Source of the DNA: Gammaproteobacteria bacterium
GTDB lineage: Bacteria > Pseudomonadota > Gammaproteobacteria > CBDBNL01 > JAAOII01
Length of the DNA stretch: 64,000 bases
Direction of reading: 5' to 3'
Assembly: GCA_965209035.1 (NCBI GenBank)
Contig: OZ242372.1
Location: 288,001-352,000, forward strand
Shown here: in pieces, positions 42,393 to 57,927 of the stretch
Position numbering within the stretch: the stretch's first letter is position 1
Layout of the letters: each line of letters starts with the position of its first letter
Position numbers and translations under genes: made by a program
Notes under the pieces: generated by a model
What the model saw: the letters and a program-made list of their open reading frames with translations, nothing else
Databases searched by the model: none
What the model was told of the DNA's origin: nothing

Positions 42393-42863
42393 ATGAAGCG
42401 AGAACATCCCATCATGCAAAGACGACTGGCACGGCGTCTGGTGCTGCAGGCCCTGTATCAATGGCAAGTATCCGCCGAACCGCCGCAACATGCCGAAGAC
42501 TATGCCCGGCACAGCAAAAATTACGAGAGGGCGGACAAAGAATACTTTCACAAATTGTTTGTCGGCATTACGCAAGATGTCGCTTGCTTTGACGAACAGA
42601 TTGTTGAATGCACCGACATCCGCCCCGAAGATCTGCACACAATGGACACCCTGATATTGGGCATCTTGCGTATCGGTGTTTACGAATTGATGCGCGAACC
42701 GAACCTCAGCGTTGCCATTGTCATTAACGAAGCCGTTATTCTCGCCAAAAACTTTATGCATCGGGAGGCAGCCGGATACATCAATTCCATATTGGATCAA
42801 GTTGCCGCTTGCCTAAAACGCAAAACCGATGCCAGTCCGACATCGGCAACAAAATCAACATGA
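42393..42863 (+). CDS. nusB: Transcription antitermination factor NusB
   Basis: RRLARRLVLQALYQW, ILRIGVYEL, VINEAV.LAK.F, YINSILD. Confidence 0.94.
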   Translation: MKREHPIMQRRLARRLVLQALYQWQVSAEPPQHAEDYARHSKNYERADKEYFHKLFVGITQDVACFDEQIVECTDIRPEDLHTMDTLILGILRIGVYELMREPNLSVAIVINEAVILAKNFMHREAAGYINSILDQVAACLKRKTDASPTSATKST

Positions 42864-43067
42864 CACAAACAACGGAAACAGATTTGGATCAGATTGCCGT
42901 TTGCCTAAAACGCAAAACCGATGCCAGTCCGGCATCGGCGACAAAAGAAACATGACACAAATAACGGAAACAGATTTGGATCAGATTGCCGTTTGCCTAA
43001 AACGCAAAACCGATGCCAGTCCGACATCAGCGACAAAAGAAACATGACACAAACAACGGAAACAGAT
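42792..43067 (+). repeat. 92-bp tandem repeat x3 spanning the nusB stop / thiL start; encodes two 31-aa mini-ORFs (42860-42955, 42952-43047)
   Basis: ttggatca at 42792, 42884, 42976; ATGA at 42860, 42952, 43044. Confidence 0.93.
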
Positions 43068-50694: not shown

Positions 50695-52992
50695 CTATAA
50701 TTTTTGGAAATTGGTATAGCGTAAAATCAACCACATTTTTCCTTCCGTTTCAAAATCCACTTCCACACGCGCACCTTCCCCCCGTCCTTCCGTGTCAGTC
50801 ACCACTCCGTAGCCATAAGAAGGATGGAGCACTCCCTGTCCTTTTTTCATCTTGGGCGCGGAATAGCGAAGTGCCCAATTAGGTGCCCCTTGCTTGTTGC
50901 TTTGGGCTTCGAAGGCAGGGGAGGCATCGGAAGCATCGGGGGCATCAGAGGCATCATGATCATTGTGGTCATCAGAAGCGTCCGAATGATCGGAGTTATC
51001 TTCTCGTTCTTTTTTTTCCTCTTCCTCTTGCCCGGATAGCCCGACATTCTCCAACAGTTCTTCCGGGATCTCTTCCACAAAGCGGGAGACGGCCTGCTCG
51101 GAACCATAGCCGTTAGAGCGCAGGACATAAGAGATCATATGCAGCCGCCGACAGGCACGGGTAATTCCCACATAACACAACCGCCTCTCCTCTTCCAGAT
51201 TTTCCGATTTGAAAAGAGAATTCTCGTGCGGCAACAACCCTTCGTTCATTCCCACCATAAAGACCAAAGGAAACTCCAAACCTTTCGCCGAATGCAGCGT
51301 CATCAACTGCACCGCATCCTGTGCTTTTGTCTCTTCTCTTTCCCCGCCGGCTTCCAACGCGGCCGTATTAAGAAATGCCGACATCCCCGCCACCCCTCCT
51401 ATTGGGATACCGGAAGCCGCATTCACCAGTTCCCGCAGATTTTCCTTGCGGGCTTCGCCATCTTTTTCGTCTTCCAAGTTTTCGTAGTAATGTGCCAACC
51501 CGCTTTGTTTAATCACTTGTAAAACGGTTTCCGGCAGGGTCAGCCGCGCAATCTCTTCCCGCATCTTCTCGAGCAATGTCAAAAACTGTTGCAACGGCAC
51601 GGCGGCGCGCGCCGGCAAGATGTTCTCGGCAAGCAACTGCTCCGCCGCAACCGGGTAAGACAGAGAATGCGACTCCGCACGGGAAGTGATTTTTGCCAAA
51701 GTGGCTGCGCCAATGCCTCGCCTTGGAACATTAATAGCACGCACAAATGCCACACCATCCAACGGGTTAACGATGAGCCGCATATAAGCAAGGGCATCTT
51801 TAATTTCCGTTCTTTCATAAAAGCGCAAGCCGCCGTATATGCGGTATGGCAAATTGGCACGCACAAAAACACTTTCAAGGACGCGAGATTGGGCGTTGGT
51901 TCTGTAAAGGACGGCACAATCGCTCGGCTTGCCGCCGCTATCCGTATGCTCCCGGACGGTGTCCGCCACATAAAATGCTTCCGCCGTGTCGGTTTGCGCC
52001 CGGTAAAACTTGACGGGCGTCTTGTCCCGGTCGCTTGTCCAGAGTTTTTTACCCAGCCGGTCGGCGTTGTGTTCTATTAAGTGGTTCGCCGCTTCAAGGA
52101 TCGGCGAGGTGGAACGGTAATTCTGCTCCAAGCGAAAGACACGCACATCCTTGAATAACTTATTAAAACGAAGGATGTTGCCGATGTCCGCACCGCGCCA
52201 ACCATAGATGGATTGATCCTCATCGCCAACCGCCATCACATAATTCGGTCGTTTGGGATCCGGCGAATCCTGTAATAGCCGAATGAGACCAATCTGCATT
52301 TGATTGGTATCTTGAAACTCGTCCACCAGAATACACCGAAACTGACGACGGTAATGTGCGAGGATATCCGGCTTGTTCTTCAGAAGTTCATAAAGCCGCA
52401 ATAGAAGTTCGGAAAAATCCACCATACTCTCCGCCGCTGCGGTTTTCTCGTACAGTTTATAGGCCTCCAGCATCATCTCTTGCGTGTAGTGATTGCCGAT
52501 CACAACATCCCGGCTGCGCAGTCCTTCCTCCTTCCAGCCGGAGATTTTGTTTCGCAATTCATTCGGACTCAACTTGCCCATGCCTTGGGATACCGAACCC
52601 GCCTGTTTGAGAATACGCCGAATGAATGTCAGTTGATCTCCGCTATCTGATATGGAAAAGTTTTTTTCCAAGCCCGCCTCTTCCCAATGTCTGTGCAGGA
52701 TGCGGTTCGCCATGGAATGAAAGGTATTGCACCACAGCCCGACCGGCGAGCGTTTCAATATCACGCTGATGCGGGCACGCATCTCCTTTGCCGCTTTATT
52801 GGTAAAGGTCACTGACAAAACGGAATCCGGTATGAACCCTTCTTCCGTCAAAAGCCAGGCAAACCGATGCACCAGGACGCGCGTCTTACCGCTACCCGCC
52901 CCCGCAAGAACCAACGCATTGCAAAGAGGGGCGGAAACCGCCGCACGCTGCTGTTCGTTCAAGCCTTTAAGAATAGCAGAATCTTGCATCAT
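50695..52992 (-). CDS. uvrD: DNA helicase II (UvrD/PcrA family)
   Basis: LNEQQRAAV, AGAGSGKT, TFTNKAA, VDEFQD, GDEDQSIYGWRGA, LEQNYRS, TLHSAKGLEF, EEERRLCYVGITRA, C-terminal Tudor-like domain; start moved to ATG 52992. Confidence 0.95.
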   Translation of the reverse strand: MMQDSAILKGLNEQQRAAVSAPLCNALVLAGAGSGKTRVLVHRFAWLLTEEGFIPDSVLSVTFTNKAAKEMRARISVILKRSPVGLWCNTFHSMANRILHRHWEEAGLEKNFSISDSGDQLTFIRRILKQAGSVSQGMGKLSPNELRNKISGWKEEGLRSRDVVIGNHYTQEMMLEAYKLYEKTAAAESMVDFSELLLRLYELLKNKPDILAHYRRQFRCILVDEFQDTNQMQIGLIRLLQDSPDPKRPNYVMAVGDEDQSIYGWRGADIGNILRFNKLFKDVRVFRLEQNYRSTSPILEAANHLIEHNADRLGKKLWTSDRDKTPVKFYRAQTDTAEAFYVADTVREHTDSGGKPSDCAVLYRTNAQSRVLESVFVRANLPYRIYGGLRFYERTEIKDALAYMRLIVNPLDGVAFVRAINVPRRGIGAATLAKITSRAESHSLSYPVAAEQLLAENILPARAAVPLQQFLTLLEKMREEIARLTLPETVLQVIKQSGLAHYYENLEDEKDGEARKENLRELVNAASGIPIGGVAGMSAFLNTAALEAGGEREETKAQDAVQLMTLHSAKGLEFPLVFMVGMNEGLLPHENSLFKSENLEEERRLCYVGITRACRRLHMISYVLRSNGYGSEQAVSRFVEEIPEELLENVGLSGQEEEEKKEREDNSDHSDASDDHNDHDASDAPDASDASPAFEAQSNKQGAPNWALRYSAPKMKKGQGVLHPSYGYGVVTDTEGRGEGARVEVDFETEGKMWLILRYTNFQKL

Positions 52993-53463
52993 TTTTGAAA
53001 GAGGATCTTTGCCACTCCCGCAAGAACCAACGCATTGCAAAGAGGGGCGGAAACCGCCGCGCGCTGCTGTTCGTTCAAGCCTTTAAGTATAACAGAATCT
53101 TGCATCATTTTTGAAAGAGGATCTTTGCCACTACCGCAAGAACCAACGCATTGCAAAGAGGGGCGGAAACCGCCGCGCGTTGCTGTTCGTTCAAGCCTTT
53201 AAGGATAGCAGAATCTTGCATCATTTTTGAAAGAGGATCTTTGCCACTCCCGCAAGAACCAACGCATTGCAAAGAGGGACGGAAACCGCCGCGCGTTGCT
53301 GTTCGTTCAAGCCTTTAAGCATAGCAGAATCTTGCATCATTTTTTAAAGAGGATCTTTGCCACTCCCGCAAGAACCAACGCATTGCAAAGAGGGGCGGAA
53401 ACCGCCGCACGCTGCTGTTCGTTCAAGCCTTTAAGCATAGCAGAATCTTGCATCATTTTTTAA
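52901..53463 (-). repeat. 116-bp tandem repeat, ~4.8 copies, of the uvrD 5' end; encodes four 39-aa mini-ORFs
   Basis: ATGATGCAAGATTCT at 53456, 53340, 53224, 53108, 52992 (period 116). Confidence 0.95.
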
Positions 53464-53717
53464 ATAACATTTAAAAGAATCCTTAAAAGAATCTCGGAAA
53501 GAGTTTTATAAAGATACTCTTTATCGCCACGCCCGGATACATGTCCGAACCCAAGCCCCTGCCCACACTATGTCCAAGACCCGGCTCACGCCATGCCCAT
53601 GCCTATGCCCATACACGCCCGACATCTTAACTTGCCTGTCGCCGGCATTCTCTCCACACGCCGGCGGTGTGTTTATGATTGCCGGGGTTTCCATCACAGT
53701 TGCCATTACAGTTGCCA

Positions 53718-54443
53718 TTACAATTTATAGCCCTCGCCCAGATAGGTGCGGCGCACTTGTTCGTTGTTGACAATACTTTGTGCGTCGCCTTGCGCGATAA
53801 TACGCCCTTCGCCGATGACATAGTTTTCGTCACAAAGCCCCAGCACATCCCGAACATTATGATCATTAATGAGAACCCCGATTCCCAACTTGGTTAAATT
53901 CATCGTCAGCCGCTTGATCTCATCCACAGAGATCGGGTCCACACCGGCAAAAGGCTCATCCAAAAGTGCGAACTTCGGCTTGGTGGCAAGAAGACGAGCA
54001 ATTTCGGTTCGGCGCCGCTCCCCGCCGGAAAGCAGTCTGCCCTTGCCATGGCGAATCCTTTCCAACGAGAACTCCGCCAACAAGCGTTCGGTCTCTTCTT
54101 TCTGTGAGTGCGCATCCAGATCCGCCCGAAATTCCAAGGCGGCGCTAATGTTCTCTTCTACCGTCAGGTCGCGAAAAACGGAGTTCCCCTGCGGCAAGTA
54201 CCCCAAACCCAGCCGCCCGCGTTTGTTCATCGGCATTCGGGTGATGTCCCGTTCGTCCATCAGAATGCTGCCGCCGTCCGCCCGGATCAAACCAATCAAA
54301 ATATAAAAGAGAGTGGTCTTGCCGGAACCGTTGGGTCCCAAAAGTCCTACTAATTTGCCGGTATCCACTCGCAAACTAATCCCCCGCAAGATTTCTTTTT
54401 TACCGTAACTTTTTACGATGTCCCGAACCAAAAGAGAACTCAT
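53718..54443 (-). CDS. lptB: LPS export ABC transporter ATPase LptB
   Basis: GLLGPNGSGKTTLFY, GYLPQ..SVFR.L, LSGGERRRTEIAR, LLDEPFAGVDPISV, YLGE. Confidence 0.96.
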   Translation of the reverse strand: MSSLLVRDIVKSYGKKEILRGISLRVDTGKLVGLLGPNGSGKTTLFYILIGLIRADGGSILMDERDITRMPMNKRGRLGLGYLPQGNSVFRDLTVEENISAALEFRADLDAHSQKEETERLLAEFSLERIRHGKGRLLSGGERRRTEIARLLATKPKFALLDEPFAGVDPISVDEIKRLTMNLTKLGIGVLINDHNVRDVLGLCDENYVIGEGRIIAQGDAQSIVNNEQVRRTYLGEGYKL

Positions 54444-55939
54444 CTGTCCCGCTGTTGCGACTCCTTGGGAATTAAAATGTGCACGCGCGTGTCTTTTGGT
54501 GTTTGGTCGCTTTCCGCCGCAGCCGGGTCTTTCGCATCCCCCGTCTCGCCCGTCCCTCCCGACAACCGAAAAGTATCTTCTTTGATATCGTAAAACAATG
54601 TTTCGCCGGTTGCTTGCTTGCCGTCTTGATCCAAAAAAGCATTGCCGGATAATTGTAAGGTCTGCTCGACAACATCATAAAAAATACTATCCGCTCTCGC
54701 CAAGAGTTGCTTGTCCGGGGTGTCCGGAGTGCCCGGTTTGCCCGGCTGTTCATTCAACACAAAAGCGGGCGAACCCGACGAACCCAACAGTAGAATCTTG
54801 TTGTTGTCTTCAATATGCATCTGCCGGCCCTCCCCGCTCAATTTTGTTTCGGTATTTCCCGCTCCTTCGCCGGCACTTATTGAGGTGAATCTTAGAGGTG
54901 TGCCAAAGACTTGCATTTCTTCGCGATTGCCGGGGTTGCCGGCTGCCCCGTCACCGCCAACCGGGGCAGAAGCAGTGTGTAAAACATAATGCAGGTCTGT
55001 CCCGGTGCCGCTGATGGTTGTCGCACCCGGATAGATGTATGTAACCGGATTGCCCGAGGCGTGAAATACACGGATGCCGGTTTCATCACTCCATTTCGTT
55101 GTCAAAGTATCGCCTTGCACCTGCATACCATCTTGCTTCAAAGTAAAAGAGTTGGTGAAGTTTGCCTGCCCCTCATAAGGACGCACCTCACTTTCCCCTG
55201 CGGTGATGCTCCCGCCATTTTGCAAGTCTGTCCCGGTGCCGCTGATGGTTGTGGTTGCCGCACCCGGGTAGATGTATGTGACCGGATTGCCCGAGGCGTG
55301 AAACACATGGATGCCGGTTGCATCACTCCATTTCGTTGTCAAAGTATCGCCTTGCACCTGCATACCATCTTGCTTCAAAGTAAAAGAGTTGGTGAAGTTT
55401 GCCTGCCCCTCATAAGGACGCACCTCACTTTCCCCTGCGACGATACTCCCGCCGGTTACCAAATTTTGCAGAACCACTGTGTCTTTAAGGAATATTCGGT
55501 TTGCCGAACCGCTCATTTGCTCCGCTGCCAAACGCACCCAAGCGTCCGGCTTCTGCCCGAGGACTTCTGCAAATATGTTCCCGGTGCCTACCGATAATTT
55601 CGGCAGGGTTTCGGCACTTGTCGTCAATGAAACAGATGAGACAGATGAGGCATTCGCATTGGCACCCTTAAATAAAAATAATTCCGGTGTTCGGGCTTCC
55701 AGTTGGCCGGAAGGAGAAACCGTCCCCTCCGCAAAGGTTAATCGGTAAAAAGGAGTTCCGTTGCGGAAATGGGTTTGTGTGGCATCTCGCAAAAAAAGAA
55801 ACGACCCGGTATCCGCGGTTTCCGGTCTCGCCGGCAAAAGAAAATCGTCTTTTACAAGATTCAAACTTCCCCAAACAGCAACCACCAAAAGAATCGGCAT
55901 GAAGTTGGCAAGGAGATAGCGGAAAAAGTTTTTCATCAT
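54440..55939 (-). CDS. LptC/LptA-like fused beta-jellyroll protein with internal 79-aa duplication
   Basis: N-terminal TM anchor (LptC-like); ASGNPVTY and ARADSIFYD...LQLSGNAFLDQ...GETLFYD...RVHILIP (LptA/OstA-like); ATGA overlap with lptB. Confidence 0.72.
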   Translation of the reverse strand: MMKNFFRYLLANFMPILLVVAVWGSLNLVKDDFLLPARPETADTGSFLFLRDATQTHFRNGTPFYRLTFAEGTVSPSGQLEARTPELFLFKGANANASSVSSVSLTTSAETLPKLSVGTGNIFAEVLGQKPDAWVRLAAEQMSGSANRIFLKDTVVLQNLVTGGSIVAGESEVRPYEGQANFTNSFTLKQDGMQVQGDTLTTKWSDATGIHVFHASGNPVTYIYPGAATTTISGTGTDLQNGGSITAGESEVRPYEGQANFTNSFTLKQDGMQVQGDTLTTKWSDETGIRVFHASGNPVTYIYPGATTISGTGTDLHYVLHTASAPVGGDGAAGNPGNREEMQVFGTPLRFTSISAGEGAGNTETKLSGEGRQMHIEDNNKILLLGSSGSPAFVLNEQPGKPGTPDTPDKQLLARADSIFYDVVEQTLQLSGNAFLDQDGKQATGETLFYDIKEDTFRLSGGTGETGDAKDPAAAESDQTPKDTRVHILIPKESQQRDR

Positions 55940-56046: not shown

Positions 56047-57927
56047 TCAATCATTATAGCCGTTGGTAATCGGATACCGCCGGTCGCGCCCGTAAGAACG
56101 CAAACTGATGCGCGTTCCCACCGCCGCCTGAAATCTTTTGTGTTCGGCAAAACGAACCATTCGGATCACCCTGCGGACTGTGTCTTTGTCATAACCGCAG
56201 GCGAGAATCTCCTTATCCGCTAAACCCTCTTCCAGATGTTTCCGCAGAATGCCATCCAAAATATCATAGGGCGGAAGTTGGTCGCTGTCCTTCTGCCCGC
56301 CGTATAATTCGGCGGAAGGTTCCCGGTCAATGACAAAGTTAGGAATGACCTTGCCGATTGCATTACGAAACCTCGCCAGCGCATACACATCGGTCTTAAA
56401 GACATCTATTAAAGGACAGAACCCGCCCGCCATATCTCCGTAAAGCGTGGAATAGCCAACCGCAAACTCGCTCTTATTACCGGTTGCCAATAGCAAGGCA
56501 TCTTCCCGGTTTGCCCAGGTCATTAACATCAGGGCGCGACTGCGTGCCTGGATGTTTTGCAAGGTCGTTCCGCTGTCGGTCTCATCCTTCAAAAACTCCG
56601 ACATCGTCCCGCGCAAGGCCTCGGTCACAGAGCCTATGGGAAACTCCCGGGACTCCGCTCCCAAAAGTGCAACCTGCTCTTGGGCGTAACGCAAACTCTC
56701 CGATGAGGTATATTGACTCGGCAAAAGAAGAGCCGTCACCTTGTCCGCCCCCAGAGCATCCGCGGCAATACACAATGTCAAAGCCGAATCTATGCCGCCG
56801 GAAAGCCCCAGCACCGCTCGCTTAAATTTGTTCTTGCGATGGTAATCCGCCAGCCCCAGCGTAAGGGCATCGTAAACCTCCGCCAGATCGGCAGACCCTG
56901 TCTCGTCCGTTTTCGGTACTTTTTTAATGTGATCTTTCGCGGAACCTGTGCTCGGCTTGGGGTCGCCTGTTTTATCCAAGTCGGTTACCAAAAGACCCTC
57001 CTGCATACCCAAGGCAAACAAAGAAGATACCACCTTTCCGTTTTTGTCGCAAACAAAAGAGTTGCCGTCAAAAACAAGACCGTCCTGCCCGCCACAGGCG
57101 TTGATATACGAAACGGGTAATCCAAATTCTTTGGCTCTTTCTTGCACCAATCTGTGCCGAGTAGCCAACTGCCCTCTGTGATAGGGAGAAGCATTAATGG
57201 TGATCACATGCTGGGCCCCGGCTGCCCGGCAGGCTGCCATAGGTTCGGGCCGCCATAGATCTTCACAAATCAGAAGTCCGAAGCAAATTCCATCCAAAAC
57301 AAAGACCGCAGATTCCGTGCCCGGAATGAAATAGCGTTTTTCGTCAAACACCGAGTAGTTCGGCAAGGTTTGTTTCGCATAAGCGGCGAGTCTGCGCTCG
57401 CCGAAAAAAACATCCGCCTGATTTGTGGCAATCGGCGCGGTGCAGGTTCCGGCGGCTTCTCGCCAATCTTGTTCTGTTTGTTCTGTTTGTTTTGTTTGGT
57501 GTTCAGGTTGCTCCGATTGCCCTGCTTGTTTTGCTGGTTTTGTTTGTTCTGTTTGTTCTGTTTGTTCTGTTTGTTCTGTTTGCCTCGGTTGCCCTGCTTG
57601 TTTTGTTTGGTGTTCGGGTTGCTTTGTTTGTTTTGTTTGGTGTTCAGGTTGCTTTGCTTGATGCCCCGGAAAACCCGGATACCCGATGACAACCGCCAGG
57701 TCGGGCAGCTGTCGAATCAGCCTGTCCCGCACAAGTTGACAGTCTGTGATGAATTGTTTGTCCAGCCAGAGATCCTGTGCCGGATAACCGCACAGGCTCA
57801 TTTCCGGCAGCACCAGCAGATCGGCACGATGTTCGTCCTTTGCTTTGTGAGCCAACTCCAAGATGCGGTTGGCATTGTCATTTAAAGCACCAACCGTTGC
57901 ATTGAACTGCCCCAAGGCTATGCGCAT
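56047..57927 (-). CDS. nadE: Glutamine-dependent NAD+ synthetase with Gln-rich repeat insertion
   Basis: Nitrilase domain (PEMSLCGYP, KQTLPNYSVFDEKRYF, ICEDLW) and synthetase domain (GLSGGIDSA, NIQAR, TGNKSE.AVGY.TLYGD). Confidence 0.96.
   Translation of the reverse strand: MRIALGQFNATVGALNDNANRILELAHKAKDEHRADLLVLPEMSLCGYPAQDLWLDKQFITDCQLVRDRLIRQLPDLAVVIGYPGFPGHQAKQPEHQTKQTKQPEHQTKQAGQPRQTEQTEQTEQTEQTKPAKQAGQSEQPEHQTKQTEQTEQDWREAAGTCTAPIATNQADVFFGERRLAAYAKQTLPNYSVFDEKRYFIPGTESAVFVLDGICFGLLICEDLWRPEPMAACRAAGAQHVITINASPYHRGQLATRHRLVQERAKEFGLPVSYINACGGQDGLVFDGNSFVCDKNGKVVSSLFALGMQEGLLVTDLDKTGDPKPSTGSAKDHIKKVPKTDETGSADLAEVYDALTLGLADYHRKNKFKRAVLGLSGGIDSALTLCIAADALGADKVTALLLPSQYTSSESLRYAQEQVALLGAESREFPIGSVTEALRGTMSEFLKDETDSGTTLQNIQARSRALMLMTWANREDALLLATGNKSEFAVGYSTLYGDMAGGFCPLIDVFKTDVYALARFRNAIGKVIPNFVIDREPSAELYGGQKDSDQLPPYDILDGILRKHLEEGLADKEILACGYDKDTVRRVIRMVRFAEHKRFQAAVGTRISLRSYGRDRRYPITNGYND

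Follow-up and report, generated by a model that had tools for sequence, protein, structure and literature searches.

The start of the uvrD gene in this genome, from an uncultured family of the Gammaproteobacteria, is preceded by an array in which a 100-nt piece of the gene, running from position -8 to +92, occurs in five head-to-tail copies, four beyond the gene's own. The array is probably a lineage-specific tandem segmental duplication, or minisatellite, derived from 100 nt of the uvrD start region, and in all likelihood arose through careless duplication and has been tolerated, rather than serving as a new control device. It offers a clean and instructive example of how a tandem duplication whose period is not a multiple of three (non-3n, as opposed to 3n) can settle on an important gene without breaking it: the final copy stays whole, and those added ahead of it would be read as short ORFs, each ending on the start that follows. 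No new mechanism is opened by it. The array lies in a 64,000-nt window, which is the whole stretch of DNA that was analysed, and the main features of the locus, from upstream to downstream, are the following.

53718..54443, minus strand: lptB-like ABC ATPase gene, the same-strand upstream neighbour (Pfam ABC_tran and BCA_ABC_TP_C)
53465..53717, minus strand: unique spacer from lptB to the array, with small 23-nt and 12-nt repeats
52901..53464, minus strand: tandem array, period 116, 4.86 copies (TRF, alignment and unit table)
53001..53016, minus strand: 16-nt filler, with identical fillers at 53117-53132, 53233-53248 and 53349-53364
52901..53000, minus strand: copy 5, uvrD's own start region, consisting of 8 nt of leader and the first 92 nt of the gene
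50695..52992, minus strand: intact uvrD gene of 765 aa (Pfam UvrD-helicase and UvrD_C)

The product of uvrD has the parts of a full-length helicase, with both the N- and the C-terminal domain (UvrD-helicase, PF00580, 1-270/271, E 7.7e-80; UvrD_C, PF13361, 2-347/350, E 1.3e-68) and a Walker A motif, AGAGSGKT, at residues 30-37, and its N-terminus aligns with those of relatives starting at residue 2. Apart from a RecB-like ORF the genome has no other UvrD/Rep-type match, and the gene therefore probably must be expressed. In four of four family relatives lptB and uvrD are adjacent on the same strand and separated by a gap of 31-63 nt, as against 725 nt here, from which it follows that the array probably sits inside an operon junction. 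The spacer also holds an unsupported ORF of 65 codons (53521-53718, minus strand), the ATG of which overlaps the lptB stop.

How is the array put together? TRF reports a period of 116 with 4.9 copies, 96% matches, no indels and a score of 1044. The initial annotation had described about 31 repeated codons with a 116-bp period; the period holds, but the repeated stretch of the gene measures 30 codons and 2 nt, to which 8 nt of leader are added. Nor does the array consist of whole 116-nt units, for its 564 nt are made up of five copies of 100 nt and four fillers of 16 nt, which is no integer multiple of 116. With its constant period, high identity and a unit taken from local sequence, the array has the properties of a minisatellite. 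The unit is unique to the uvrD locus, the only other match to 52850-53520 in a BLAST search of the whole genome being one of 27 nt. The filler is invariant across its four occurrences in the unit table, and no full-length source for it was found elsewhere in the genome, where only chance words of 12-14 nt matched. The proposal that this junction is a recoded, frameshifted Walker A was rejected, the likeness being no better than chance: the filler matches uvrD at 9 or more positions in 20 of 2283 offsets, and the Walker A offset falls outside the best eight.

Seven columns vary among the copies in the unit alignment, which agrees with the earlier count of about seven differing sites, one of them a codon seen in all four third-position states. 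This is codon 7, the third position of which (53436/53320/53204/53088/52972) holds all four bases across the copies. The probability of at least 3 of 9 changes landing on one site is about 0.006, a pattern that simple neutral decay fails to predict and that counts against the reading as a tolerated duplication. The changes number about 5 non-synonymous and 4 synonymous, a ratio indistinguishable from neutral. The RNA of unit 4 plus the gene start folds no differently from its shuffles (z = 0.15), and a search of the region for known RNA families gave none, only one chance match below threshold, with a eukaryotic UTR family.

Arrays of this kind invite the question of whether the genome truly holds one copy, or some number other than that assembled. 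Such an assembly artefact is very improbable. It is true that no read or contig spans the array and that, as no piece in the Logan contigs covers the whole of it, the order and exact number of the copies rest on the assembly. However, 7 sites distinguish the five copies, and the words specific to each unit were found without differences in the Logan contigs (three runs of one sample) at near the depth of the flanks. Relative to the flanks, depth was 0.64-1.6 for pieces occurring once in the array and 1.76-2.73, or about twofold, for those occurring twice. Neither alternative joints nor loose ends are reported in these contigs, and the genome is assembled in 2 contigs with hundreds of arrays resolved. 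The tandem copies are accordingly present in reads, with unit-specific words at single-copy depth, in a sample that is probably the assembly's own source and whose runs therefore give no independent support. A run from another sample with the same species label (X4) contributed 5 reads only, with 95-99% likeness and all within 52500-52969.

The four upstream copies each contain an open reading frame.

53337-53456, minus strand: mini-ORF 1, 39 codons, in the upstream-most copy
53221-53340, minus strand: mini-ORF 2, 39 codons
53105-53224, minus strand: mini-ORF 3, 39 codons
52989-53108, minus strand: mini-ORF 4, 39 codons, its TGA overlapping the ATGATG of uvrD

The ORF list and the translations agree with the initial annotation that these are four intact 39-codon ORFs, each with its TGA inside the ATGATG of the next and the last overlapping uvrD. 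In all four the last base of the TGA lies 3 nt beyond the first base of the next ATGATG, such that both ATGA and TGATG stop/start overlaps, as in coupled ORF pairs, are formed on one strand, the final TGA of the chain overlapping the uvrD start at 52992. Mini-ORFs 3 and 4 are enclosed in the ORF list by longer ORFs with TTG starts. This geometry arises because the period is 3n+2, the gene starts with ATGATG and only 8 junction codons had to be kept open; the chain of mini-ORFs is a by-product of the 3n+2 period and of a gene that begins with ATGA.

What of the peptides themselves? No two of the four are alike, and the consensus earlier proposed for them, although it describes real ORFs, leaves out the private substitutions A6V in unit 4, A21V in unit 2 and G31V in unit 3. 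The 39-aa products might be imagined to have a function of their own, as Q-motif pieces of UvrD acting on the helicase or on proteins that work with it, and in keeping with this the ORFs are intact and each has the uvrD initiation region. Yet each carries a different substitution, the 8-residue tail is read-through of the junction, the analogous truncated ORFs at other genes are unrelated in sequence and the peptides are conserved nowhere else, all of which makes such a role extremely improbable.

The uvrD array is one of 211 non-redundant arrays with a period of at least 30 in this 2.24 Mb genome, and their placement depends strongly on the class of the period. Among arrays with at least 85% match, 70/86 of those with a 3n period fall inside ORFs, compared with 5/36 of the non-3n arrays (Fisher p = 2e-12), where the ORFs are a crude longest-ORF set, made without gene prediction, and where a non-3n array in a true gene would of itself interrupt the frame. 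In the family relative G001 all of the non-3n arrays (14/14) are outside ORFs. A non-3n duplication survives only if it leaves one copy of the gene whole, that is at gene borders and in intergenic regions. The arrays of the family reveal a clear selection filter by period class, and the lineage amounts to a natural experiment on duplication, on tolerance at gene borders and possibly on the birth of uORFs. Eight arrays carried a label for contact with a gene start as well as a gene end; on inspection, five of these are at junctions of recognisable genes, and the other three (periods 392, 464 and 358) have only small ORFs and no recognisable gene. Further gene starts in the genome have been amplified in like manner, including those below.

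KDPG aldolase: 295 nt x 3.9, giving three truncated ORFs of 88-91 aa
DNA methylase: 227 nt x 2
aldo-keto reductase: 128 nt x 2
442-aa gene: 50 nt x 4, giving three 17-aa ORFs with the same ATGA overlap
radC: 332 nt x 5

With respect to origin, an imperfect first duplication would have joined two copies of the uvrD start region through the 16 nt of filler, after which unequal recombination or replication slippage may have expanded the array to five copies, with point mutations since then accounting for the 2-5 differences per 100 nt between copies. Why would such an insertion in front of an important gene be tolerated? The gene is probably read from an lptB-uvrD transcript, and each copy retains the initiation region of uvrD. 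Translation would then cover the additional 464 nt of leader nearly free of gaps, ribosomes being passed on from one ORF to the next by termination-reinitiation, with UvrD synthesis presumably little affected and the mini-ORF peptides produced as waste. Translation and coupling of the mini-ORFs may therefore be the reason that the array is tolerated.

A stronger version of this idea is that the chain has been selected, either as a relay that brings ribosomes over the enlarged lptB-uvrD junction or as a dosage tuner in which copy number sets the level of UvrD. The initial annotation had suggested a copy-number-tunable ribosome relay; the reinitiation geometry into uvrD stands, and nothing indicates a selected device. 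The attraction of the idea is that the ATGA/TGATG overlaps are unbroken all the way into uvrD, that by direct reading no Shine-Dalgarno-like stretch lies within about 20 nt of the uvrD start, and that synteny places the array at an operon junction. In addition, another ATGA chain exists in the same genome, at the 442-aa gene, and mycobacterial interspersed repetitive units (MIRUs) offer a precedent, in that a coupled ORF keeps their effect on the gene that follows to a minimum (PMC12548453). However, the overlap geometry follows from arithmetic, and the non-3n arrays that touch gene starts are not enriched in 3n+2 periods, with 3n+1 and 3n+2 in balance at 6 vs 8. At three other amplified gene starts there is no overlap, the ORFs stopping 20-60 nt short of the start that follows. 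Each of the four peptides is distinct, their changes showing no departure from neutral, the array is missing from all 20 uvrD loci examined in 19 other genomes, and an intact last copy cannot be switched on or off by copy number. On balance a selected relay or tuner is unlikely. A phase-variable contingency locus was also considered and rejected, as the last copy runs straight on into the intact gene at any number of upstream units; each of these units holds only 8 nt of leader.

Transcription has also to be considered, for the minus strand of 52700-54500 contains one promoter-like match.

53086..53115, minus strand: promoter-like match TTCAAA-18-TATACT with a preceding TG, in unit 4 only (consensus match)

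Substitutions in unit 4 could have created a compensatory promoter with an extended -10 (TGnTATACT, with TTCAAA at -35), in which case uvrD would be transcribed from within the array and units 1-3 would have no bearing on its expression. Both private changes of unit 4 lie in or beside the -10-like hexamer, whose fourth position is the four-state site. Against this, the one site found compares with 1.2 expected in shuffles and so is not evidence of function, the proposal is drawn from a consensus match only and the same hexamer frame is present in every copy, the gene's own included; a compensatory promoter is thus highly doubtful. A composite of these ideas, which is itself quite improbable, would have start-region duplications at operon junctions across the family selected into translated relays that cross the inflated gaps and shield the transcript, with the uvrD array perhaps also gaining the unit 4 promoter through the four-state site, and with copy number modulating the only UvrD/Rep-type helicase and, via it, the recombination of repeats.

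A tolerated duplication has parallels in known systems. Termination-reinitiation coupling at overlapping gene pairs (ATGA/TGATG) was reportedly described by Huber et al. in 2019 and 2023. The uvrD chain has the same overlap motifs in consecutive ORFs on the same strand, but those pairs are real genes, often encoding subunits of one complex, whereas the ORFs ahead of uvrD are shortened versions of uvrD itself, and their coupling is putative.

Tandem repeats in Ehrlichia ruminantium carry truncated gene fragments. Those in its non-coding regions are subject to active expansion and contraction (PMC10710844). The similarity extends to head-to-tail local copies of 100 nt or more (VNTRs), to the many arrays per genome and to their location mostly outside intact coding sequence, where truncated gene fragments are left behind. 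The present host differs in belonging to an uncultured gammaproteobacterial family, a different phylum-level lineage, and the uvrD unit differs in holding a start codon and initiation region, such that a chain of translatable ORFs results.

The MIRUs have an internal ORF that is coupled to the downstream gene through a 4-nt overlap and are thought to leave expression of that gene nearly unchanged (PMC12548453). The uvrD units resemble them as short repeats placed at operon junctions or the starts of genes and in having a mini-ORF that overlaps the downstream start codon, which is the case in all 4 units. MIRUs are nevertheless dispersed over many loci and apparently mobile, while the uvrD unit is the gene's own start and is confined to one locus; there is no sequence relation between the two.

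Finally, the repeat load is a family trait, and the uvrD array is one outcome of the tendency to duplicate in this group of genomes. Counted per 200 kb, arrays with a period of at least 30 number 21 in this genome (G000) and 22 and 48 in its family relatives G002 and G001, in comparison to 6 and 2 in two genomes of other families (G005 and G017), which corresponds to about 100-240/Mb in the family vs 10-30/Mb outside it. At the uvrD locus itself the best UvrD identities were 53% among GTDB relatives, 49% among contigs of named genomes and 42% among metagenome contigs, and none of these matches was usable at the DNA level. The suggestion that reduced UvrD could explain the duplication load is not supported, since G002 and G001 lack a uvrD array and yet match or exceed this genome in load, which undercuts that cause, and uvrD itself is intact by Pfam. 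A lack of the repair genes looked for, MutS_V, RecA and recJ, was rejected as the source of the load, with family matches to all three present in open frames.

The uvrD gene of this genome begins within a tandem array that is built from copies of its own start. The two features are:

50695-52992, minus strand: uvrD, intact, encoding a 765-aa UvrD helicase (Pfam)
52901-53464: tandem array over the uvrD start, period 116, 4.9 copies, 96% matches, no indels, score 1044 (Tandem Repeats Finder)

The protein matches the Pfam profiles UvrD-helicase over positions 1-270 of 271 and UvrD_C over 2-347 of 350. Alignment of the copies and their tabulation in register resolve the array into a 100-nt piece present five times, comprising an 8-nt leader followed by 92 nt from the beginning of uvrD (30 codons and 2 further nt) and stopping just short of the Walker A codons. 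The five copies, each of which retains the A/U-rich uvrD leader and first 30 codons, are connected by four 16-nt fillers, all identical. The length of 564 nt is thus exactly 5 x 100 + 4 x 16, the mark of a single imperfect duplication that expanded afterwards; the filler would lie at the joint of that duplication, and the array would then have grown by mispairing of copies. The unit is confined to one locus of the genome, and no source for the filler was found across the rest of the genome. A recoded Walker A, as which the junction had been read, is at chance level, with 20 of 2283 uvrD offsets agreeing with at least 9 of the 16 filler positions and the Walker A offset lying outside the best eight; it was rejected as the source of the filler on these grounds.

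Is the array real, or is it a misassembly of a single copy? The stretch is present in three sequencing runs, all of one sample from which the assembly was probably made, and therefore they do not represent independent support. The k-mer contigs of these runs break at the repeat, as expected, yet they hold every unit-specific word with zero differences, and depth, scaled to that of the flanks, is 0.64-1.6 for pieces with a single place in the assembled array and 1.76-2.73 for those with two. Together the unit-specific words and the depth exclude a single copy. No alternative joints or loose ends are reported at the array in the run contigs. Copy order and the exact copy number are taken from the assembly, as none of the run records crosses the whole array; a fourth run, from a different sample, contributes five reads only.

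What the initial annotation described in the sequence is confirmed, whereas its functional reading is not. All four 39-codon mini-ORFs, one per upstream unit, are present, the last base of each TGA lies 3 nt beyond the first base of the ATGATG that follows, the last mini-ORF overlaps the start of uvrD itself, and seven columns vary among the copies, where about seven sites had been counted. The coupling geometry is therefore real, but it requires no selection: a period of 116 nt is 3n+2, so on reaching the following ATGATG the frame is set back by one base and yields TGA, and only eight codons of the junction need be free of stops. Pairwise, the copies diverge at 2-5 positions per 100 nt, with about 5 non-synonymous to 4 synonymous changes and no departure from neutral expectation. 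Functional mini-ORF peptides are unsupported, each of the four being unlike the other three. The same applies to a copy-number-tunable device setting UvrD dosage, as the geometry is a matter of arithmetic and the overlap is not enriched among arrays that touch gene starts. The mini-ORF chain is a by-product.

This last comparison draws on the whole genome (G000; 2.24 Mb, two contigs, 49% G+C), which holds 211 non-redundant arrays with a period of at least 30. Placement was scored for arrays with at least 85% match against a crude longest-ORF gene set, on which 70 of 86 3n arrays lie inside an ORF as opposed to 5 of 36 non-3n arrays (Fisher p = 2e-12). The other 31 non-3n arrays touch only a gene start (6), only a gene end (9) or both (8), or lie between genes (8). 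A gene start is touched by 14 of the 36, with eight of period 3n+2 and six of 3n+1; it is this balance, along with truncated ORFs that end 20-60 nt short at three genes, which argues against enrichment of the overlap geometry. Several of these arrays are direct analogues of that at uvrD.

Analogues of the uvrD array in G000 (C1, a contig of this genome)
G000:C1:1123666-1124821 (L183): KDPG aldolase gene (KDPG/KHG), 295 nt x 3.9, three truncated 88-91-codon ORFs upstream of the intact gene
DNA methylase gene: 227 nt x 2, before the gene
Aldo-keto reductase gene: 128 nt x 2, before the gene
recN/radC junction: 332 nt x 5, array confirmed here
G000:C1:1543523-1543723: 442-codon gene, 50 nt x 4, three 17-codon mini-ORFs before the gene

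In the 50 nt x 4 array every mini-ORF ends on the next ATGA start, with the same geometry as uvrD; at the aldolase, methylase and reductase genes, a gap of 20-60 nt separates the end of the truncated ORF from the next start. Two non-3n arrays (G000:C1:432845-433307 and 914822-915085) touch the starts of DNA methylase-like genes, one confirmed by Pfam (N6_N4_Mtase) and the other judged by eye. DNA-metabolism genes (methylases, uvrD, radC) look frequent among amplified starts, in numbers too small for a test.

UvrD identity to the nearest proteins is no higher than 53% within the GTDB family, the corresponding values being 49% for a named gammaproteobacterial MAG and 42% for metagenome contigs, and no array was found at the uvrD start in 20 uvrD loci from 19 other genomes. 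Array load was counted on 200-kb samples.

Arrays of period at least 30 per 200 kb
G000, this genome: 21
G002, same family: 22
G001, same family: 48
G005, same order, other family: 6
G017, same class, other family: 2

This corresponds to about 100-240 arrays per Mb in G000, G001 and G002 against 10-30 in G005 and G017, so that a high duplication load is common to G000 and the two family members sampled. A weakened uvrD had been offered as its cause; G001 and G002 carry the same or a higher load with an ordinary uvrD start, which speaks against this. Family matches to MutS, RecA and RecJ are present in the genome, all with open frames. All 14 non-3n arrays of G001 lie outside ORFs.

In all four same-family genomes uvrD is preceded on the same strand, at a distance of only 31-63 nt, by an lptB homologue (60-67% identical); in none of 15 other-family loci does lptB occur within 1.5 kb upstream, the extent of the loci. 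Such tight conserved linkage suggests an lptB-uvrD co-transcript. In G000 the gap is 725 nt, of which 253 nt are spacer, 464 nt come from the added array units and 8 nt are the leader of the gene itself. The spacer, which contains small repeats, has no promoter-like site at threshold on the uvrD strand, and no terminator-like site was found on the minus strand. UvrD probably has to be made, as it is the only UvrD/Rep-type match in G000 besides a RecB-like ORF. With UvrD as query, G000-G004 (G000 and its four family relatives) gave RecB-like pieces but no second UvrD/Rep-type gene; in several other genomes of the class there is a second match at 37-39% identity. Within the spacer, a 12 nt x 3 repeat (53687-53722) copies the lptB stop region (TAATG) and opens a putative 65-codon ORF (53521-53718, minus strand). 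This ORF takes up most of the spacer, and its ATG shares bases with the lptB stop.

The mini-ORFs run contiguously into uvrD, with stops overlapping starts. Ribosomes may initiate on every copy or reinitiate at the successive overlaps, and the added leader would thereby be translated almost throughout, avoiding a long untranslated gap and leaving UvrD synthesis about unchanged, with the 39-aa peptides as presumed by-products. The same reasoning is put forward for mycobacterial interspersed repetitive units (MIRUs), where an internal ORF coupled to the downstream gene by a 4-nt overlap is described as thought to minimise the impact on that gene (PMC12548453). The uvrD unit itself is not MIRU-like, being present at one locus only. 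The nearest described genomic counterpart is Ehrlichia ruminantium, for which PMC10710844 mentions tandem repeats in non-coding regions that actively expand and contract.

The proposed account leaves one feature unexplained, the clustering of changes at the third position of codon 7, where the five copies read G, G, C, A and T; that a single one of 116 sites should take at least three out of nine changes has a probability of about 0.006. This site is also the fourth base of a -10-like hexamer. The two private changes of unit 4, the copy just upstream of the gene's own start, give TTCAAA-18-TATACT, preceded by TG. It is the only promoter-like match on the minus strand in 52700-54500, where shuffles expect 1.2, so a possible new promoter just upstream of uvrD is a lead and not a finding.

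Other repeats in the window include a 92 nt x 3 array (42792-43067, 94% match) at the junction of a 156-codon ORF and an AIR-synthase-related (thiL-like) gene, which repeats a candidate start region. A 237 nt x 2 in-frame duplication (54990-55453) within an ORF of 499 aa with an LptA/LptD_N domain (54440-55939, minus strand) exemplifies the 3n class surviving within genes. Finally, 9/18-nt repeats at 57469-57639 put a QTEQTEQ-type low-complexity stretch in a 626-codon ORF (56047-57927, minus strand) that was read by eye as NAD synthetase-like.
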